Positions 3,765 to 53,692 of a stretch of DNA of 58,339 nucleotides are shown one piece after another. The notes under the pieces are model-generated. The model ran no database searches and was not told the origin of the DNA. It saw nothing but the letters and a program-made list of their open reading frames with translations. Made by a program: the position numbers and the translations under genes. This stretch comes from Pedosphaera sp. (GTDB lineage: Bacteria > Verrucomicrobiota > Verrucomicrobiia > Limisphaerales > SIBH01), in assembly GCA_031414955.1 (NCBI GenBank), contig JANOQV010000173.1:1-58339 (forward strand). The letters are read 5' to 3'. Position 1 is the first letter of the stretch; each line of letters opens with the position of its first letter.

Positions 3765-5294
3765 ATGAGTACACTATTGCAAGAAATTGAAGCGAAGATC
3801 TCCGGCGTGAAGACCGAGGTCTCGCGCCAGAACGTCGGCAACGTTCGTGAAATCGGCGACGGCGTGGCGAAGATCGAGGGTCTCACGGGCGCGATGCTCA
3901 ACGAGATGCTCGACTTCGGCAACGGCGTCACCGGCATCGCCCTCAACCTCGAAGAGACGGAAGTCGGCGCGATCATTCTCGGCGACTACACCTCAGTGAA
4001 GGAAGGCCAGGAGGTCAAGACGACCGGCAAGTTGCTCTCCGTGCCCGTCGGCAAAGGGTTGCTCGGTCGCGTGGTCAACACGCTCGGTCTGCCCGTTGAT
4101 GGCAAGGGGCCGATTGTTTCCGACGTTTCTTATCCGGTGGAGAAAATTGCGCCCGGCATCGTGAAGCGCAAATCGGTCACGCAGCCTTTGCAGACCGGCA
4201 TCATGGCGATTGACGCGATGATTCCGATTGGCCGCGGGCAGCGCGAACTCATCATCGGCGACCGTTCGACGGGCAAGACCACGATTGGCGTGGACGCGAT
4301 GATCAACCAAGCGCGCATCAACCAGAGCGAAGCCTCGAAGGAAAAGGGTTTTCGTCCGGTCTATAGCATCTACGTCGCGGTCGGTCAGAAGCAGTCCAGC
4401 GTGGCCCGCGTCATTGCGACGCTGGAGAAGGAAGGCGCGCTGCCCTACTGCATCGTCGTCGTGGCTTCCGCATCGGACTCCGCCGCCAACCAGTATCTCG
4501 CGCCCTTCGCCGGTGCGGCCATGGGCGAGTGGTTCATGGACAACGGCATGGATGCGTTGATCATTTTCGACGATCTCTCGAAGCAGGCCGTGGCCTACCG
4601 TCAGGTGTCCCTCGTGCTCAAGCGTCCGTCCGGTCGCGAAGCATATCCTGGCGACGTGTTCTATCTGCACAGCCGCTTGCTCGAACGCTCGGCGCGTGTC
4701 TCCGAGAATTACGGCAACGGCTCGCTCACCGCGCTGCCGATTATCGAGACTCAGGCGGGCGACGTGTCGGCCTACATCCCGACGAACGTGATTTCGATTA
4801 CGGACCGCCAGATCTATCTGGAAACGGATTTGTTCTATCAGGGTATCCGCCCGGCTATCTCGGTCGGTCTCTCCGTGAGCCGCGTCGGTTCCGCCGCGCA
4901 GATCAAGGCGATGAAACAGGTCGCCGGCAAGATCAAGCTGGACCTCGCGCAGTTTCGCGAACTCGCGGCCTTCGCGCAGTTCGGTTCCGACCTCGACGCC
5001 AAGACGCAGGCGCAGCTCGAACGCGGCAAGCGCATCGTCGAGCTGTTCAAGCAGAACCAATACAACCCGTTCCCGGTCGAAGTGCAGGCGGCGATCCTGT
5101 GGGCCATGCAGAACAACATGCTCGACGACGTGGCCGTCGATAAGGTGAAGGATTTCCAGGCCAAGATGACCGACTTCCTCAGCACCCGGAAAGCGGAGCT
5201 GCTCGGCAAGATTCGCGCCGAGAAGGCGTTCAGCGACGCGCTGGCCGCCGAGTTGAAGGCCGCGCTGACGGAGTTCAAGCAGACGTATCGGTAA
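3765..5294 (+). CDS. atpA: F0F1 ATP synthase subunit alpha
   Basis: [47 protein letters not shown]. Confidence 0.99.
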
Positions 5295-5302
5295 GCCTGA
5301 AT

Positions 5303-5333
5303 CGTTTGATGTCACAATTTGTGATATCAAACG
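5303..5333. promoter_or_regulatory. 31-bp near-perfect palindrome, putative operator of the ORF6N gene
   Basis: CGTTTGATGTCACAA-T-TTGTGATATCAAACG with 1 arm mismatch. 24/27 identical to the palindrome inside the gene at 5549-5577. Confidence 0.7.
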
Positions 5334-5346
5334 CAACGATGTGTAT

Positions 5347-5922
5347 ATGGCCAACGAAGCAGCAATGACGCAGATCGAAGGGATGGATTCCCAAATCCAT
5401 CTTGTTCGTGGGCAGCGCGTTATGCTGGATTCGGACTTGGCGGCCATGTACGGCGTCTCGACCATGCGCTTGAACGAACAATTCAAGCGCAACCGGCAGC
5501 GTTTTCCGGCGGATTTTGCCTTCCAACTGACGCCGGACGAGCACACGGCTTTGATATCGCAATTTGCGATATCAAAGAAAGGTCGCGGTGGACGGCGCAA
5601 GCTGCCGTGGGTTTTCACTGAGCACGGTGCGATCATGCTTGCGGCCCACCTCAACAGCCAGCGTGCCGTCGAGATGAGCGTCTTCGTCGTCCGCGCCTTC
5701 GTGCAAATGCGCGAGGTGCTGCTGGGTAACAAGCAGCTCGCGGCAAAATTGGCGGCTTTGGAGGAACGCGTCGGCGGACATGACGCCGTGATTGCGGATT
5801 TGATCACAGCCATTCGCAAATTGCTCGAAGCCCCGGCGGAGGAGCAACCAAAGCGGGCGATGGGATTTCACATGCGCGAGGAAGCGCCGCCGTACCGGTA
5901 TAAAATTTCCCGTAAAAGATAA
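5347..5922 (+). CDS. ORF6N (KilA-N-like) domain DNA-binding protein
   Basis: IHLVRGQRVMLDSDLAAMYGV...LNEQFKRNRQRFPADFAFQLT...GGRRKLPWVFTEHGAIMLA...LNS, with C-terminal KRAMGF. Start at GTG 5341 or ATG 5347. Confidence 0.93.
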   Translation: MANEAAMTQIEGMDSQIHLVRGQRVMLDSDLAAMYGVSTMRLNEQFKRNRQRFPADFAFQLTPDEHTALISQFAISKKGRGGRRKLPWVFTEHGAIMLAAHLNSQRAVEMSVFVVRAFVQMREVLLGNKQLAAKLAALEERVGGHDAVIADLITAIRKLLEAPAEEQPKRAMGFHMREEAPPYRYKISRKR

Positions 5923-5924
5923 CC

Positions 5925-6803
5925 ATGCCCAGCACACGCGACATTCGCCGGCGCATCAAGTCGGTCAAGAACACCGCCCAAATCACCAAGGCGATGCAAA
6001 TGGTCGCTTCCGCCAAGATGCGGAAGGCGCAGCAGGCCGCCCTCTCGGGTCGCCCCTACGCCAAGTTGATGAACAACGTGCTCTCGGCCGTGTCGGCGGG
6101 CGCGGGTGATTTTTCCAATCCGCTTATCGAAGTGCGCCCGGTCACCAAGCGCGCGCTGATCATCATCAGCACGGACAAGGGGCTGTGCGGCGGGTTGAAC
6201 ACGAATCTGCTCCGCGAGGCGGCGAAGTACGACAAGGCCACCACCGTCCATGTCACGGCGGGACGCAAGGCTTCGCAGTTCGTCGCGCGCACCAAGCGCG
6301 AACTGGCGGCGGAGTTCACCTACAAGGACAACCCGGCGTTCGCCGAGGCGCGCGCCATCTCGCGGTTTGCCCAGGATCTTTTCACCAGCGGCAAGGTGGA
6401 TCAGGTGGACGTGCTCTACACGAATTTCATCAGCACCATGGTGCAGAAGCCGGAAGTCCGGCAGCTCCTGCCCATCCGCGAAATCACCGCGCTGGACGCC
6501 GACGTGCAGGGTGAAAGCACAGGTCAGGCGTTGGAGAAGAACACCACCGAATACCTCTTCGAGCCGGGCGCGGAAACCGTGTTGGGCAGTTTGCTCCCGC
6601 ACTACTTGAACTTTCAGGTCTATCAATTTCTGCTCGAAGCCAAGGCCTCCGAGCACAGTGCGCGCATGGTCGCGATGAAGAGCGCGACCGACAACGCCAA
6701 GCAGATGATCAAGGACCTGACGCTCGAATACAACAAGCTGCGCCAGGCCAACATCACGCGCGAACTTTTGGAAATCACCAGCGCGGCGATGGCGATGGGG
6801 TGA
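5925..6803 (+). CDS. atpG: F0F1 ATP synthase subunit gamma
   Basis: IRRRIKSVKNTAQITKAMQMV, DKGLCGGLN, ASEHSARMVAMKSATDNA, RQANITRELLEI. Confidence 0.99.
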   Translation: MPSTRDIRRRIKSVKNTAQITKAMQMVASAKMRKAQQAALSGRPYAKLMNNVLSAVSAGAGDFSNPLIEVRPVTKRALIIISTDKGLCGGLNTNLLREAAKYDKATTVHVTAGRKASQFVARTKRELAAEFTYKDNPAFAEARAISRFAQDLFTSGKVDQVDVLYTNFISTMVQKPEVRQLLPIREITALDADVQGESTGQALEKNTTEYLFEPGAETVLGSLLPHYLNFQVYQFLLEAKASEHSARMVAMKSATDNAKQMIKDLTLEYNKLRQANITRELLEITSAAMAMG

Positions 6804-6838: not shown

Positions 6839-7029
6839 ATGACAGCGCTACTTGAAAAAGCACTGAATGAAGCGTCCGGTTTGCCGGAGGTGGAGCAGGA
6901 CAAGGTTGCGACCTTGGTTCTCGAAGAGTTGAGCCGGGCCAGAATACTGGCGGGAATCGAGCGCGGTGAGGCGGCTATTCGCGAAGGCCGGACCTGCACG
7001 CAGGCCGAAGCCAAAGAGCGCATGGCCCG

Positions 7030-7042
<13 letters not shown>
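6839..7042 (+). CDS. Putative type II antitoxin (ParD-like partner)
   Basis: 67 aa, ends in IERGEAAIREGRTCTQAEAKERMARWLK, overlaps the toxin start. Confidence 0.8.
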
Positions 7043-8824
<1,782 letters not shown>

Positions 8825-8891: not shown

Positions 8892-9071
8892 ATGAACACT
8901 CTGAAGACCTTGCCAACAAATGGACATTACAGTCTCCCTTCTGGACAAACCAAAGAATTGCATGCCCGTCTTGCCAAACTGTTTGAGTGCGCTCCCAAAG
9001 AGCGGGAAACTACCGGCAATGCCAAAAGCACCGTAGTACGACCTACCAAGATTTCAGCTTGGTGGAAGTAA
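8892..9071 (+). CDS. Small hypothetical protein (59 aa), possible antitoxin-like partner
   Basis: Manual translation MNTLKTLPTNGHYSLPSGQTKELHARLAKLFECAPKERETTGNAKSTVVRPTKISAWWK. Preceded by TTGCAA-N16-TAATTT (8852-8879). AT-richer than the flanks. Confidence 0.55.
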   Translation: MNTLKTLPTNGHYSLPSGQTKELHARLAKLFECAPKERETTGNAKSTVVRPTKISAWWK

Positions 9072-9101
9072 CATCCACAGCTCCATTTCAAGGCGCAACG
9101 A

Positions 9102-9701
9102 ATGTTGGATCTTCTCCTTCAAGACTCACTGCCGAGTGAGCAATCCCTCGCTGAGTCACTGGAAGGTTTTGTTGACCGGTGTTTGCGCTTGTACTATCTC
9201 GGAGGGGAAAAAAATGTTTTGATCGATGAGGATGACCTGAGAGGAGTTGCTGAAATTGGACTGCAGTACCTACTAAACCTCAAGACTCCGAGTGTCTTCA
9301 AAGTAGCTGCCGTTTTCACGTTGAGTTCTGCGAGCATCAAGCCCTTCAAGACACCTCTTCCAGAAGCGTTTAATCCGGTTCGCGCTGATACCAACATTGT
9401 TTTGGGGATTTTGGAGTCGTGCTATTGGCTTCACGGAGCAGACTTGCTCACACAAACAGGCAGGAGAAAAGTTACTTCACCGCTTGCGTTTTCTGACCAT
9501 TATTTCACAGAAATGATCCAGACCGTCTCGTTTGCTTGTCAAAGTTTCAGCGGCACATTTGGCGAGGCAGATGACAGATCGAAGGTGGGCTTGTTGGCTC
9601 TCGTTTACGAGGCCGTGGCATACAAGACAAATGGGCATGTTCCCTACGACACAAATCCGCTCGTAGATGTGGCCAAAGTTTATTACGACTTGCCTTTATG
9701 A
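9102..9701 (+). CDS. Hypothetical protein, possibly a degenerate Fic/Doc (Fido) fold
   Basis: 199 aa, AT-rich codon usage, stop overlaps the atpC start (ATGA). PSVFKVAAVF...IKPF...N...LHG spacing recalls Doc. Confidence 0.7.
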   Translation: MLDLLLQDSLPSEQSLAESLEGFVDRCLRLYYLGGEKNVLIDEDDLRGVAEIGLQYLLNLKTPSVFKVAAVFTLSSASIKPFKTPLPEAFNPVRADTNIVLGILESCYWLHGADLLTQTGRRKVTSPLAFSDHYFTEMIQTVSFACQSFSGTFGEADDRSKVGLLALVYEAVAYKTNGHVPYDTNPLVDVAKVYYDLPL

Positions 9702-25975: not shown

Positions 25976-28606
25976 GTGGCGAACCTGTCCCTGCCCATCT
26001 GGGCCGTTCACTCCGGCGTCGTCGGGGAACTCCGCGCCGGCAACCGCCTCGTCCTCGTCGCCCCCACCGGCTCGGGCAAGACCACCCAGGTGCCTCAAAT
26101 GTTGCTGGACGCCGGCCTGGCCGGCACTCGCAAGATTGTTGTGCTCCAACCGCGCCGCGTGGCCGCGCGCACCGTGGCCGCGCGCGTGGCCTGGGAACGC
26201 AACGTGAAACTGGGCAGTGAGGTGGGCTACCAGATTCGCTTCGACGATCACACCAGCCTCGGCACCCGCATCTGCTTCGTCACGGAGGGCATTCTGCTGC
26301 GCTGGCTCCAGGATGATCCGGCGCTCAGCGACATCGCGGTCATTCTGTTCGATGAGTTTCACGAGCGAAACTTGTTGAGCGACGTGGCGCTGGCCCTGGC
26401 CAAGGAGTTGCAACGCACCACGCGGCCCGATCTGAAAATCGCCGTGATGTCGGCCACGCTCGATGCGGAGCCGGTGGCCGCTTATCTCGACGATTGCCCC
26501 ATCATTGTCTCGGAAGGCCAGAGCTATCCGGTGGACCTGCACTATCTCGACCTGCCGGACGAGCGGCCGGTCACGGAAAAGGCGGCGGACATCGTGGAGC
26601 GCATCGTGAACTCGGGCGGTGGTGGCGACATTCTCGTTTTCATGCCCGGCGTGGGGGAAATCAACCAGACCATCGGGGCCATTCGCGCCGCGCGGACGCA
26701 GGAGAAGTTGGCGCTCATTCCGCTGCACGGCGAGTTGCAGGCGGAGGAACAGGACGCGGCCTTCGCGCCCAATCCATTGCGCAAGGTAGTCGTGGCCACG
26801 AACGTCGCGGAAACGTCCGTGACCATCGACGGCATCCTGCATGTGGTGGACAGCGGCGTGGCGCGCGTGGCGCGTTACGATGCGGAGCGTGGCATCGGCA
26901 CGCTGTTCCTGGAACCGATCAGCCGCGCCTCCGCCGATCAACGCAAGGGCCGGGCCGGGCGCACGGCCCCGGGTGATTGCTGGCGCCTGTGGACGGAGGG
27001 CGGGCACTTGAATCGCGCCGAGCGCAACACGCCGGAGATTCAGCGCAGCGATCTGGCCGAGGTGGTCTTGCTGCTGCACTCGCTGGGCATCAAGCGCGCG
27101 GTGGATTTTGACTGGCTGGACAAGCCGGACGCGCAGGCAGTCGAGCGCGCGGAGAAGCTGTTGCTCATGCTGGGAGCGTTGAGTGGAGGGGGGAAGGAGA
27201 AAGCAGAAATCACCTCCGACCTCACACCGGTCGGCCGGCAGATGCTGCGGCTGCCCATGCACCCGCGCTATTCGCGGATGTTGATCGAGGCGTCGCGGCG
27301 GGATTGTGTGCGCGCGGCGGCGCTGTGCGCGGCGCTGGTCAGCGGGCGGGATCTGCTCCAACGACTGCGGCGCGAGGACAAGCACATCGCCGAGGCGCGG
27401 GAGTTGTTCGAGGCGTCGCAGAACTCGGACTTCTTCACCCTGATGCGCGCGTTCCAGTACGCGAAGCGCGCGAACTTCAGCTTCGAGTCCTGTCGCAACT
27501 ACGGCCTCAACGCCCAGGTGGCGCGGCAGGTGGAGCAGACCTTCGAGCAGATCGTCACCATTGCGGAGCGGGAGAGGCTGATCGAGCGGCGGCCGGCGGA
27601 AGGCGAAGGCGGGGAAAGTCCAAGGTCCAAGGTCCAAGGTTCAAAGCCGGACGACGATGCATTGCTGCGCTGCCTGCTGGCCGGATTCATCGACCAACTC
27701 TGTGTCCGGCGCGATCTCGGCACGCTGGATTGCGACCTGACGGAGCGGCGGCAGGGTTCGCTGCTGCGCGAGAGCGTGGTGCAGAACTCAAACTTGCTGG
27801 TCGTGGCGAGCATTCGCGAAGTGCCGGGGCGCGGCCCGGAGGACTTGACCCTGCTTGGACTGGCCACGGCGGTAAGGCGCGAGTGGATCGAGGAGATGTT
27901 CCCGCAGCATCTTACTGGTGTGGTCGAGCACCTTTACGACCGGACGCACAAGCGCGTGGCGGCGGTGAAGTTGGTGCGCTTCGCCGATCTGGTCATCCAC
28001 CACGAGCACCAGCGCGAGGTGGTGCCCGAAGCCTCCGGCCTGGCGCTGGCCGAGGCGGCGCGGCGCGGGTATTTCGAACTGCCGCTGTTGAACCACGACG
28101 TGAAGCAGTTCATCGCGCGGGTGAATCTGATCTGCGCCGCGCTGCCGGAACTGGAGATGCCGCCGCTGGATGAGCCGGCCATCACGCGCTGCCTGGCCCG
28201 GGCTTTTCACGGCTTGACGCTGGCCAAGGAGGCGCAGGCCACGCACGTCCGCGAGGAATTCCACAAGCATCTGGCCCGCGAGCAACTGGCCTGGGTGGAT
28301 GAGTTGGCCCCGCTGTCCATCACCTGGCCCGACGGGCGCAAATTGAAACTGCTCTACCCGGAGGAGGCGCGGGACGAGGAGGGCGAGCCGAACTCACCCG
28401 AGGTGCAGGCAAAGCTCCACGAATGTTTCGCCGTGAAGGAGCATCCGCATCTCGCCGAGGGCCGGGTGCCGGTGAAACTCTGGCTGGCCTCGCCCGACGG
28501 GAAGCGGATAGAATCGACGTTCAACTGGCCGGCCTTTCGCACCAACACCTACCCGAAGCTCAAGCCGGCCTTGCAGAAGAAATTTCCCTCCCTGCTCTGG
28601 GTCTGA
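25976..28606 (+). CDS. hrpB: ATP-dependent RNA helicase HrpB
   Basis: APTGSGKTT, DEFHER, MSATL, ATNVAETSVTI, QRKGRAGR, HrpB-like C-terminus. Confidence 0.93.
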   Translation: MANLSLPIWAVHSGVVGELRAGNRLVLVAPTGSGKTTQVPQMLLDAGLAGTRKIVVLQPRRVAARTVAARVAWERNVKLGSEVGYQIRFDDHTSLGTRICFVTEGILLRWLQDDPALSDIAVILFDEFHERNLLSDVALALAKELQRTTRPDLKIAVMSATLDAEPVAAYLDDCPIIVSEGQSYPVDLHYLDLPDERPVTEKAADIVERIVNSGGGGDILVFMPGVGEINQTIGAIRAARTQEKLALIPLHGELQAEEQDAAFAPNPLRKVVVATNVAETSVTIDGILHVVDSGVARVARYDAERGIGTLFLEPISRASADQRKGRAGRTAPGDCWRLWTEGGHLNRAERNTPEIQRSDLAEVVLLLHSLGIKRAVDFDWLDKPDAQAVERAEKLLLMLGALSGGGKEKAEITSDLTPVGRQMLRLPMHPRYSRMLIEASRRDCVRAAALCAALVSGRDLLQRLRREDKHIAEARELFEASQNSDFFTLMRAFQYAKRANFSFESCRNYGLNAQVARQVEQTFEQIVTIAERERLIERRPAEGEGGESPRSKVQGSKPDDDALLRCLLAGFIDQLCVRRDLGTLDCDLTERRQGSLLRESVVQNSNLLVVASIREVPGRGPEDLTLLGLATAVRREWIEEMFPQHLTGVVEHLYDRTHKRVAAVKLVRFADLVIHHEHQREVVPEASGLALAEAARRGYFELPLLNHDVKQFIARVNLICAALPELEMPPLDEPAITRCLARAFHGLTLAKEAQATHVREEFHKHLAREQLAWVDELAPLSITWPDGRKLKLLYPEEARDEEGEPNSPEVQAKLHECFAVKEHPHLAEGRVPVKLWLASPDGKRIESTFNWPAFRTNTYPKLKPALQKKFPSLLWV
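27618..27645 (+). repeat. Heptamer tandem repeat (GTCCAAG)3 plus a degenerate unit, inside hrpB
   Basis: GTCCAAG GTCCAAG GTCCAAG GTTCAAA, encoding SPRSKVQGSK. Confidence 0.9.
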
Positions 28607-32400: not shown

Positions 32401-32526
32401 CACCCTGGAAAGTGTCGCTACCTGCCGACACGAATGTCGGCGCTACGTCGTAACGCCGGCTTTCCAGCCGGCAGGTGGCGAGACTTTCCAGTCTCGCGTT
32501 GCTGCGGGCTGGAAAATCCGTACTCC
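32401..32526. repeat. Cluster of REP-like palindromes
   Basis: GCCGACA-cgaa-TGTCGGC-GCTAC, GTAAC-GCCGGC-tttcca-GCCGGC, GCGAGACT-ttcc-AGTCTCGC, CGGGCTGGAAAATCCG. Confidence 0.7.
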
Positions 32527-42910: not shown

Positions 42911-44201
42911 ATTCTTTCGCAGCCGTGAACACCGACAGTGTTTCGTTCGCCATGCGGTCCACGTTAAACTTCTCGCGGACGGTGCGCTGACCGGCTTCGC
43001 CCAGCGCCCGGGCGCGGACTGGATCAAGCAGCAAGTCCTCCACGGCGTCAGCCAGCGCGGGCGCGTTCGGTTCGGCGATCAATCCGCCGCCCGTGGCTTC
43101 GATCACTTCCGGAAAAGCCGCGTGGCGCGGCTGCACCACGGGAACGCCGGCCGCCAGCGATTCCAGCACGTAGAGACCGAAGGCTTCACCGTAGAGCGCG
43201 GGCGTGCAAAACACGGTGAGCGACTGGAGAAAGTGGATTTTCTCCTGCCGGGAGACATTGGGAAAGAATCGGACTTCGGTCAGCATTCCGGCCTGTTGCA
43301 GTTTCGCCCGCTGCTGATTCACGAAGGCTTCATCCCCCGGCCCGCAGCCGCCACCGATGTGAAATTGCAGGCCGGCCGCCCGCCCGCGCCGCTTCAACTC
43401 GATGAACACATCCACGGCGAGACCGAGTCCCTTCTCCGGGCACATGCGCGCGAAGTAGCCGAGTACGGGCGAACCTTGGACCTTGGACCTTGGACCTTGG
43501 ACTCCGTATCCCTCGGTGTTGATCCCGTTGTGAACCACGCGCACCCGCTCCGGTGCCACGTCCATGCGCCGCGCCATCAAGTCGGCAAAGTAACGGCTTG
43601 GAGCGATGAACAAATCCACGTCGCGAGACCGTTCGGAAAGAATCTGCCAGGCTGCGGCCCGCAGTTCCTCCGGCAAGCCATCCAAGAAGGTGTCTTCACC
43701 CTGCAACATGCAGACGACGGGTGCCCCCAATTCCGCCTTGAGCCGCCGGGCCAGGCCGACCAGCAGCACGTTGGAAAGCGAAAGAACATCGCAGTGATGA
43801 TTGGCCTTGAGCCAGCCGACCAGTTCATCCACCTCACGCGCTTGATGGCCCGACTCGCCCCGGAGCATGGAGATGGTGAGTTCGCCCACATCCTGCGCCC
43901 GCGTCCGTCCGGCCAGCCCTCCGAGGCGCTTGAGCAACTTCGGCGAGGCGAGCGCCCGGTGCAGCCAGTCCGGGGCGTAGCGAAACCAAGGCAGTTTCTG
44001 TTCGAGGTAAACATTCACGCCGCTGAAAAAAATCGGCGTGCCGGCGCTTTGATCCGCTTCGTCCAGCGTGAGCGGGAGATAAAGCGGCAGCATGAGCGTG
44101 TCGTGGCCCAGCTTGCGCAAGGCCGCCACCAGCGCATTGTCCCGGAAGCAGCCGCCACAATACATGCCGCCCGCCCCCGGGGTGATTTGAACGATGTTCA
44201 C
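42891..44201 (-). CDS. GT4 family glycosyltransferase
   Basis: GAGGMYCGGCFRDN, PEKG, EAFGLYVLESLAAGVPVV. Confidence 0.93.
   Translation of the reverse strand: MNIVQITPGAGGMYCGGCFRDNALVAALRKLGHDTLMLPLYLPLTLDEADQSAGTPIFFSGVNVYLEQKLPWFRYAPDWLHRALASPKLLKRLGGLAGRTRAQDVGELTISMLRGESGHQAREVDELVGWLKANHHCDVLSLSNVLLVGLARRLKAELGAPVVCMLQGEDTFLDGLPEELRAAAWQILSERSRDVDLFIAPSRYFADLMARRMDVAPERVRVVHNGINTEGYGVQGPRSKVQGSPVLGYFARMCPEKGLGLAVDVFIELKRRGRAAGLQFHIGGGCGPGDEAFVNQQRAKLQQAGMLTEVRFFPNVSRQEKIHFLQSLTVFCTPALYGEAFGLYVLESLAAGVPVVQPRHAAFPEVIEATGGGLIAEPNAPALADAVEDLLLDPVRARALGEAGQRTVREKFNVDRMANETLSVFTAAKEFVKHES
43473..43502 (-). repeat. Heptamer tandem repeat (GTCCAAG)4 inside the GT4 gene
   Basis: Plus strand (ACCTTGG)4 AC, encoding VQGPRSKVQGS. 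Confidence 0.92.
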
Positions 44202-51667: not shown

Positions 51668-53692
51668 CTATCTGGCCCGGGGATTCCGCATCACGTAGAA
51701 CCTTCCATCCTCCGCGCCGCCGAGGAAATCAGGCACGCCATCGCCATCGAAATCAGTCGCGGACGGGCTGACATCGTGACCTTCAATGTTTTGTTTTGCC
51801 AGCGTGCCGGCGTTTCGGAAGATCCATTGGCCATTCCTTTCGCCGACTTGCTGGAGGAGATCGGCGTTAGCGGAGTTGAGCAGGAAGTCGAACTTGCCAT
51901 CGCCATCCCAGTCGGTGACGCACAGCTTGCGGCGTCCGCTTGCGCCGCCGGATTTCGCGTTGAGTCGGAGCGGTTCCCCTTTCTCGTCCATGAAAGCCCG
52001 GCGGGGCGCACGGAGCGCCAGCTTGCCGTTCACCTTCGCTCGCTCGAAGAACGCGAGGTAGCCCTCGTGATCCAGCATCGCGAGGTCGGGCAGTCCGTCG
52101 TGATTGAAGTCGAAAATAATGGGCGTGGTGCGCCATTGCGTTTGCAACGCCCGACCTTGCGGCTTGCGCCAGCCCCAGGCGAGCGCGGGCTGCGGGCCGT
52201 TCCATTCCACTTCGATCGGTTGGGGTGCGACGAACTTCGGCGCGGTTCGTAGGCCGATGTTTTTCAACCACACCACCTCGCCGAGAATCGAGTTGAGCAC
52301 GATGTCGAGCCGGCCATCGCCGTCCCAATCGGCGACGTTGAGCGTGGTGTAGCCCCACTTGGCTTCCGCCGGGCCTTGGATGCTGCCGTTCGATCCAGCC
52401 ATCACGCGGAAGGGCTTGCCATCAATTTCAATCCGACTGGGTGCGGCCCATTTGGGCTGCACCACTTTTGGTCCGCTCAGGTTCTCGAAAAACTCGACGT
52501 AGCCCGCCGTGTTGCCGCTGACGATGTCGCCGTCGCCGTCGCCATCCCAGTCCACGCTCATTGGCGTGGCCAGCGCGCCGCACTTGAGCGTGTCGGCTTC
52601 CTGTTGGAAGTAAACCGGCGCGGCGAAAATGGGCGTCCGCTCGGCGTCGAACTTCCCGGTGTTCTCCACGAAGGCCACGCGCCCGTCCTCGTCGCCCACG
52701 ATGAGATCGAGGTCGCCATCCTTGTCCCAGTCGAAGGCGATGGGGACGATCATCTCTAAATCCATCGCCAGCCGCGCCCCGGTCCTGTCCTTCACCCGGC
52801 GGCCTCTTGCATAGCGCGGCTCAGTGCGTGTGCCGAGGTTTTCAAAATAGGTGAAGCCATCGAGGAATTCACCGCAGAGCAGATCCAGATCCCCATCGCC
52901 GTCGAAGTCCGCAAAGTTGGGTGACGGGCAACCGAACGTGTCCACCAACCCGCCCCCCGCCCGCACTAGGAACGGCTCGGCATAAGCATGGTCGCTGGTG
53001 GCGCGGAAGACGTGGACAAACCCGTGCAACGGTCCGTTCTGCCATTCTCCGCGCGCGTTCCATGCGTCGTCCCAGCCGTAGAAACTCCAGTCCTCGAGGC
53101 CCACGACCAGATCCTGCCGCCCGTCGCCGTCGTAGTCGGCGTAACGCCACTGGTTGTGCCGCACCTTTGGACCTTTGATCTGCGGGCCTTGCGGCTGGTA
53201 GAAATTCGCCTTCACCGGCAGGGAAGTTTTCTCGGTCAACCCGCTGTGGATGAAATTCGGATGCTCGCGGCCCGGCGTGAGCACTCGCAATTGACCATTC
53301 ACGTAGCTCGGCATGACGTAGTGCGCCGCGCTGCTGATGCGCCGCGCCGTCTTGAACACCGGGCGCTTGTGTTTCGCCGTGTCGCCCGTGGTGTTCTCGA
53401 AGAGATAGACGCCGTTCGACGGCTTGTCCGGGCACGACACGATCAGGTCATAGTCGCCATCGCCATCGGCATCGCATGGCACGGGCCAGGCCCACAATCC
53501 CACGCCCAGATCCACCACGAGGCCGGGATGATTGTAGGGCAGTCGTTCGAGTCCCGCCGCAAGGGAGATGAGGATGGATGGGCTGCAAACAAGAGTGATG
53601 GCCAACAGAATTTTTTGAGCCGTGCCGCCTTCGAAGCTAAACAGAGATGCCTTCCGCCGCGTCCCGACTGGTTTCATAAGCCTCGGTTTCAT
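51668..53692 (-). CDS. FG-GAP/VCBS repeat beta-propeller protein
   Basis: About eight D(W/F/Y)DGDGDxDL repeats. Confidence 0.9.
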   Translation of the reverse strand: MKPRLMKPVGTRRKASLFSFEGGTAQKILLAITLVCSPSILISLAAGLERLPYNHPGLVVDLGVGLWAWPVPCDADGDGDYDLIVSCPDKPSNGVYLFENTTGDTAKHKRPVFKTARRISSAAHYVMPSYVNGQLRVLTPGREHPNFIHSGLTEKTSLPVKANFYQPQGPQIKGPKVRHNQWRYADYDGDGRQDLVVGLEDWSFYGWDDAWNARGEWQNGPLHGFVHVFRATSDHAYAEPFLVRAGGGLVDTFGCPSPNFADFDGDGDLDLLCGEFLDGFTYFENLGTRTEPRYARGRRVKDRTGARLAMDLEMIVPIAFDWDKDGDLDLIVGDEDGRVAFVENTGKFDAERTPIFAAPVYFQQEADTLKCGALATPMSVDWDGDGDGDIVSGNTAGYVEFFENLSGPKVVQPKWAAPSRIEIDGKPFRVMAGSNGSIQGPAEAKWGYTTLNVADWDGDGRLDIVLNSILGEVVWLKNIGLRTAPKFVAPQPIEVEWNGPQPALAWGWRKPQGRALQTQWRTTPIIFDFNHDGLPDLAMLDHEGYLAFFERAKVNGKLALRAPRRAFMDEKGEPLRLNAKSGGASGRRKLCVTDWDGDGKFDFLLNSANADLLQQVGERNGQWIFRNAGTLAKQNIEGHDVSPSATDFDGDGVPDFLGGAEDGRFYVMRNPRAR

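Follow-up and report, generated by a model that had tools for sequence, protein, structure and literature searches.

Organization of the ORF6N locus

Why should a gene inserted in the atp operon carry a long palindrome within its own coding sequence and a close copy of it just ahead of its start codon? The question is raised by a 58,339-nt stretch of Pedosphaera sp. DNA (the window), in which an ORF6N-domain gene encoding 193 aa (5341..5922, plus strand, GTG start at 5341) lies between atpA on its 5' flank (3765..5294, plus strand, stop at 5294) and atpG on its 3' flank (5925..6803, plus strand), the latter beginning 2 nt past the ORF6N stop. The product was assigned by Pfam to PF10543 (ORF6N) over residues 18-101, with 107.4 bits against a gathering cut-off of 27.8; the only other Pfam match was a weak one to Rha, and no catalytic or toxin domain was found by Pfam. 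Three PADLOC PDC-S05 models (E 5.5e-49, 1.9e-45 and 3.1e-30) and the PHROG anti-repressor models (PHROG 4792) also matched the protein. No recognisable prophage context was seen around this copy, no recombinase or transposase adjoined it, the flanking genes being atpA and atpG, and no sigma-70-type promoter match was found at 5000-6100.

The original prediction described a perfect palindrome within the gene, and this was confirmed at 5549-5577 as two 14-bp arms (half-site TTTGATATCGCA) around a single T, in frame and encoding LISQFAISK (residues 71-79). The predicted second, non-coding copy was also observed (5303-5333), occupying 31 nt of the 46-nt gap that separates the atpA stop from the GTG start and ending 7 nt ahead of the start codon; it was not perfect, with one G·T mismatch leaving 14 of 15 arm pairs paired. 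The cores of the two copies are identical at 24 of 27 positions, as predicted, and with palindrome pairs numbered outward from the centre, two of the three differences form the symmetric pair 4 (G:C internally, A:T upstream), while the third is the mismatch at pair 7 of the upstream copy. The LMSQFVISN reading of the upstream copy is indeed out of frame with the gene, whose own frame gives FDVTICDIK. A scan of the 6.55-Mb genome found 12 perfect palindromes (arms of at least 14, loop 0-1) against 0.11 expected, and none of 200,000 synonymous recodings of LISQFAISK reached 14 of 14 pairs (mean 5.1). In public runs (contigs only, 85% likeness), no strand-change joint was observed among the 15 joints listed out of 38; two low-depth contigs joined the upstream copy to atpG and were probably from other organisms. 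One RNA-library contig covered 5542-5753 identically, a match that is not a demonstration of transcription.

Several further features were observed in the window. The interval between atpG and atpD (6839-7263) holds a ParE toxin gene together with a small ORF of antitoxin type (Pfam); since the atpG-atpD gap is just 12 nt in the three closest same-genus genomes, the atp operon has here received a second insert, and a more recent one. Two ORFs of 59 and 199 aa between atpD and a putative atpC (8892-9701), with lower GC and without a Pfam match, are probably a third. Short GTCCAAG tandem runs occur in opposite orientation at 27615-27644 and 43471-43503, an imperfect inverted repeat of 87 nt at 32405-32491 (43-nt arms, 81% complementary) is possibly a REP-like element, and at least five degenerate repeats of 30-57 nt within 51714-53140 probably belong to a repeat protein on the minus strand.

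Conservation of the internal palindrome

Loci were collected from genome and viral contigs with a 30-homolog alignment and, in addition, from same-phylum or same-order genomes, giving a family sample skewed to relatives of the window's protein. Viral contigs scanned with the single protein yielded no relative; scanned with the alignment they did, many of the matches being identical. ORF6N-type domains were present in 95 of the 301 genomes sampled in the phylum. From 279 ORF hits we removed 58 duplicates, 13 partial genes, 9 in which no helix could be parsed and 2 lacking the wing anchor, leaving 197, of which 180 formed a non-redundant set at <90% identity and 176 of these had a control segment. 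One dropped gene (L280) had no palindrome under the filter used.

The linker paired at 10 or more of 12 positions in 169 of the 176 non-redundant genes, compared with none of the 176 control segments, and 96 of 180 internal copies paired at all 12. All 180 genes exceeded their own synonymous recodings (11.4 versus 4.8 pairs). Pair 4 was G:C in 101 genes, A:T in 61, C:G in 16 and T:A in 2, with no mismatches, and 17 of the 180 genes held two or three internal copies. The palindrome was read in two frames, as L-x-S-Q-x-[AV]-[TI]-S in 161 genes and in the +1 frame, as an E-[VL]-V-x-N-C-D-H/R-like peptide, in 19. The suggestion that the L-x-S-Q-[FIN]-[VA]-[TI]-S motif of the family is a translated DNA palindrome was thus borne out, as the symmetry is family-wide and recodings are far less paired. 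Internal mismatches were G·T in 23 cases and A·C in 22 (11 and 14 in upstream copies), and because there are two reading frames and no G·U bias in these mismatches, the conserved entity behaves, as far as sequence can tell, as DNA symmetric on both strands and not as a peptide or RNA hairpin; a cruciform would be compatible.

Predicted structure and a residue-base rule

The structure model contains a winged helix-turn-helix (HTH) at about residues 18-104, then helices 107-144 and 149-163, which likely form a coiled coil, and a low-confidence tail. The HTH helices (30-37 and 41-50) were modelled at pLDDT 83-90 (whole-model mean 69), and the internal palindrome encodes the last part of helix 65-74 together with the loop, modelled at low confidence, that precedes the wing strand. 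Among the fold neighbours, all of them middling matches with Z <8, were DNA-binding winged helices, namely Dachshund (Z 5.8), pSK1 Par in complex with DNA (Z 4.7) and Mbp1, of the KilA-N/APSES fold (Z 4.1, 85 aligned, rmsd 3.6). Foldseek returned nothing at E<=0.001, and a PDB sequence search nothing under E 0.3. A C-terminal [KR]-x-I-G-F motif is conserved in homologs, with RAMGFH at residues 172-177 of the window's protein (~5854-5871); the motif resembles the IGF loop by which ClpX docks on ClpP.

In winged-helix proteins the second HTH helix reads bases. We computed covariation of the palindrome with aligned columns outside the linker in 163 single-copy genes, and the top columns were residues 46, 43 and 47 for pair 4, residue 46 for pair 5 and residue 42 for pairs 7 and 8. 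All of these fall within predicted helix 41-50, the second helix of the HTH (codons 41-50; 5461..5490, plus strand), and correspond to Met42, Arg43, Glu46 and Gln47 of the window's protein. The outer pairs 9-12 were symmetric, with no clear partner residue in the covariation. Glu46 occurred with G:C at pair 4 in 84 of 86 genes, Gln46 with A in 51 of 60, and Arg46 or Lys46 with C:G in 16 of 16, while at pair 7 Lys42 occurred with G:C in 111 of 111 and other residues with A in 23 of 33. Residue 43 resolved most of the Gln46 exceptions, with Arg43 plus Gln46 giving TG in 6 of 8. The refined rule, fitted on the same 180 genes in which it was first counted, reads for the left-arm bases at pairs 5 and 4: CG with Arg43 and Glu46, CA with Gln46 and a residue other than Arg at 43, TG with Arg43 and Gln46, and TC with Lys46; in addition, Arg46 goes with C at pair 4, and Lys42 with G at pair 7, where other residues mostly go with A. 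The internal palindrome of the window fits at pairs 4, 5, 7 and 8, its Met42/Arg43/Glu46 predicting GATATCGCA, which is the internal copy; the A:T at pair 4 of the upstream copy is unfit for the Arg43/Glu46 helix.

The rule was also followed in 117 close protein homologs (72/74, 37/41, 28/28 and 85/89) and in each of the 10 new DNA loci where an internal copy was present. Neither group was used in deriving it, with overlap possible between the homologs and the DNA set; a further new gene was truncated at the edge of its contig, and three fragments could not be parsed. The two Arg43-Gln46 proteins among the 117 homologs lacked the TG form. With regard to kinship, disjoint closest pairs changed the same way in 10 cases and the opposite way in none for each rule (p=0.002 each), with cross-controls at 0:0 and 2:2. 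Tree-based independent-pair tests were underpowered: with supported branches only they retained 2-6 independent pairs and were not significant (best median p 0.06), with an opposite-direction average of 0.0. On the best tree (163 genes), pair 4 changes 43 times and residue 46 changes 48 times.

Two other sources of covariation were considered and rejected. An intra-protein contact is contradicted by the non-coding copies and by the +1-frame genes, which kept the pair-4 rule in 18 of 19 cases with a different peptide; hitch-hiking is set aside by the columns between helix and palindrome, which were not among the top covarying ones. The covariation shows coupling, which is not a demonstration of function.

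Matching sites at individual loci

An internal copy fitting the refined rule (fitted on these data) was found in 172 of 179 genes; of the remaining seven, an upstream copy fitted in four, a half-site in two, and neither in one. Nearly every locus holds one or more matching copies, within the gene or just ahead of it. The genome contains a second ORF6N gene, between ORFs read as sdhA and sdhB from their translations; it has a palindrome upstream and, inside, two copies of a different variant. Orthologs at the sdhA-sdhB site in two genomes (G307 and G309) had no internal palindrome (best 7/12) and carried two upstream copies that fit their RTLNQA helix. From these orthologs we read the palindrome peptide as dispensable and the site as able to lie outside the gene.

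An upstream copy was present in 37 of 177 genes. It had been proposed that such copies match the internal variant of their own gene, forming a dual operator, and this was not supported: own-gene agreement was only slightly above that with other genes (7.36 versus 6.95 of 10, p=0.01), and at the helix-linked pair 4 it was no better than chance (0.31 versus 0.40). Among 40 genes with a matching internal copy and some upstream copy, 25 had non-matching upstream copies only. A matched upstream/internal dual operator was rejected as a general rule on these counts. The sequence facts behind the term "co-varying" for the window's upstream copy stood, and the term itself, an interpretation, held only weakly.

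The window's upstream copy instead fits another allele of the same locus: its 27-nt core is, apart from the centre base, the internal copy of the SALNQA allele at the same atp site in a same-genus genome (L216/L351), and another locus (L205) has the reverse arrangement. As sites for same-genome paralogs, upstream copies gave mixed results. The atp upstream copy of G307 fits a paralog (L357) and the atp internal copy of G342 fits another (L366); no full paralog fit was found in G000, G301, G309, G310 or G324, some of these genomes being incomplete. The upstream regions of L044 and L366 contain arrays of five and four palindrome variants, +1-frame types included, which look like collections of sites for other family members.

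Predicted binding of the protein to its own gene

We consider it very probable, from the covariation and site positions, that the ORF6N protein directly binds duplex DNA, in a sequence-specific manner, at a site in its own gene. The idea that the gene contains its own recognition element was likely correct in this respect: palindrome bases track the residues of the predicted recognition helix base by residue, and orthologs without an internal copy carry matching upstream copies, so the protein likely binds its own locus. The protein would sit on the palindrome as a dimer through its long C-terminal helix, an arrangement we infer from helix 107-144 in a monomer model, and is predicted to favour the GATATCGCA half-site over GATATCACA.

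As to what binding would do, we lean towards negative feedback by transcription roadblock, which we rate as probable. A protein bound at the internal site would damp transcription of a gene that rides the promoter of its host operon. Placement of the site in a tolerant loop would tie site to protein whenever the gene moves, and spare upstream copies, which we infer to be relics or stepping stones of specificity switching, would let the specificity change. The main weakness of the feedback proposal is the polar effect on atpG/D/C that would be expected of a roadblock lying between atpA and atpG, and that would be a cost. A binding model also leaves unexplained that non-matching upstream copies stay symmetric.

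An alternative that we regard as unlikely, though the best surviving one, holds that a few molecules of the protein are kept inactive on their own site in intact DNA and are freed, when the chromosome is degraded or displaced by a phage or when the gene is lost, to act in abortive defence or addiction. The flexible position of the site and the frequent switching of specificity (the 43 changes at pair 4) agree with this, as do the matches to the three PDC-S05 models. One PDC-S05 gene cut T7 and T5 plating about 1,000-fold in E. coli (10.1101/2024.09.26.614923). However, this tested gene carried a RhuM domain and not ORF6N (10.1101/2024.09.26.614923; PMC12881386). The protein of the window, moreover, has no catalytic or toxin domain in Pfam, and one or two sites would hold very few molecules. 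The neighbourhood of the family also speaks against it: of 78 neighbour ORFs scanned on the same strand (140 listed), 57 had Pfam hits, mostly to housekeeping genes, the atp site recurring in seven more loci, with a few methylase, toxin-antitoxin-type and nuclease genes and one transposase.

It was also proposed that the palindromes serve as sites of recombination or insertion through which the cassette moves; we find this very improbable. Occupancy of the atpA-atpG site is patchy, since among 28 relatives the gene was present in 10 (one degenerate), a solo palindrome in 2 and a short empty gap in 16, and the identities of ORF6N and atpG are only moderately correlated (rho 0.45); the tandem intragenic copies and the upstream arrays of up to five variants could likewise be taken to suggest mobility. 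The solo palindromes, however (L202 and L221, gene absent; the L221 genome, 96% complete, had no ORF6N match), join the upstream copy directly to atpG with the 3' half of the gene missing, and empty sites retain the upstream copy or nothing, with no hybrid. No integrase was found among the 78 scanned neighbour ORFs, which included a single transposase. Tyrosine-recombinase sites are unlike a palindrome with a 1-3 nt spacer, and mobility leaves the helix-base rule unexplained.

Equally improbable is an mRNA hairpin that steers translation or stability, possibly while bound by the protein. Both copies fold stably (z -2.6 and -6.1) and the upstream one stops shortly before the start codon, but such folding is common to any palindrome. 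The near-equal G·T and A·C counts disfavour a hairpin, the read-out of bases by an HTH helix suits B-DNA, and Rfam gave no gathering-score match, its five weak matches in four loci being all far under the cut-off. Least probable of all is a mutational by-product, in which template switching copies arm onto arm and maintains symmetry without selection: upstream copies at the atp site vary among same-genus genomes, non-matching yet symmetric, and the 12 of 12 pairing in 96 internal copies would agree, but such a process has no means of coupling bases to residues some 30 codons distant, a coupling seen in both frames and also in copies that do not code; it may still help both arms to switch together.

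Comparison with known systems

Self-binding of the predicted kind has partial parallels in ParB-parS and in intragenic operators; the ORF6N protein itself is neither a ParB nor part of a partition system. The parS site lies inside spo0J, the gene of its own binding protein. ParB-parS and Noc-NBS resemble the present case in combining an HTH protein, a palindrome, switching through specificity residues and a possible site in the binder's gene; the HTH of ParB and Noc sits on the palindrome, and its preferred site is switched by a handful of specificity residues (PMC7383237). The accessible portion of PMC7333895 held no statement on parS inside parB. The ORF6N protein differs in having neither a ParB domain nor the ParB N-terminal CTPase domain (Pfam). 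Nearly all family members examined have the site, the peptide it dictates is variable and read in two frames, and dozens of site switches occur on the tree.

A plasmid partition protein acting on upstream direct repeats, pSK1 Par (PDB 8csh), was a middling structural match in its winged-helix domain (53 of 53 residues aligned, Z 4.7, rmsd 2.2). We take the two proteins to be laid out alike, with a DNA-binding head followed by a long helix and a disordered tail; pSK1 Par acts on its own locus, as the ORF6N protein is predicted to do. In contrast to pSK1 Par, the ORF6N gene is a chromosomal insert inside the atp operon with an intragenic palindrome and no direct-repeat centromere.

Operators within coding sequences, with roadblock repression, are known from PurR sites and from the lambda O iterons in gene O. 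There, too, a protein-binding site overlaps a reading frame, but each of these is a single, fixed case. In ORF6N, site and protein diversify together throughout a family, and part of the DNA-binding domain is itself encoded by the site. The protein is also akin to the ORF6N/KilA-N/Bro-N/Rha anti-repressor N-terminal domains, by its PF10543 membership, the matches to anti-repressor models and a weak likeness to the Mbp1 fold. A literature search of titles and abstract openings found no DNA target or intragenic palindrome for ORF6N, and no such description for RhuM, KilA-N/Bro-N antirepressor or DUF1016 genes.

Palindromes in other gene families and wider meaning

Further long palindromes were located within two YhcG/DUF1016 genes, one RhuM gene and two Bro-N genes of this genome (L193:1912; L194:285/390/438; L195:301; L196:2033; L197:1354), with one YhcG gene carrying three copies and the RhuM gene having two more, positioned at its 5' end or ahead of it (L195:569, 608). 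We found a palindrome at the matching place in 29 of 31 RhuM genes (controls 0/31), in 10 of 15 parsed YhcG genes (controls 0; 15 of 30 loci unparsed) and in both Bro-N genes examined. In the 29 RhuM genes, helix positions ranked first for pairs 3-8, kinship uncorrected, and mismatches were G·T in 13 cases and A·C in 4, a bias that leans towards pairing within a single strand for RhuM. Eight contigs of the genome (G000: C92, C132, C156, C95, C217, C45, C105 and C109) also hold a dispersed family of CCCTCTCC...GGAGAGGG palindromes whose cores vary.

With internal palindromes also present in RhuM, YhcG and Bro-N genes, a more general principle is suggested, one that bears on the PDC-S05 candidate defence genes. 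Tentatively, and with considerable doubt, ORF6N, RhuM, Bro-N and YhcG may form a large self-addressing class, in which the palindrome read by a DNA-binding domain also encodes part of that domain, site and helix switch together by way of spare copies, and binding to its own DNA holds the protein on a leash, to sense whether the chromosome is intact or a relative is arriving. For the ORF6N family, each member gains a predicted site that can be read from its own gene, together with a simple residue-base rule. The Pfam "motif" of ORF6N is explained as translated DNA, and the family offers many natural specificity switches for the study of protein-DNA co-evolution.
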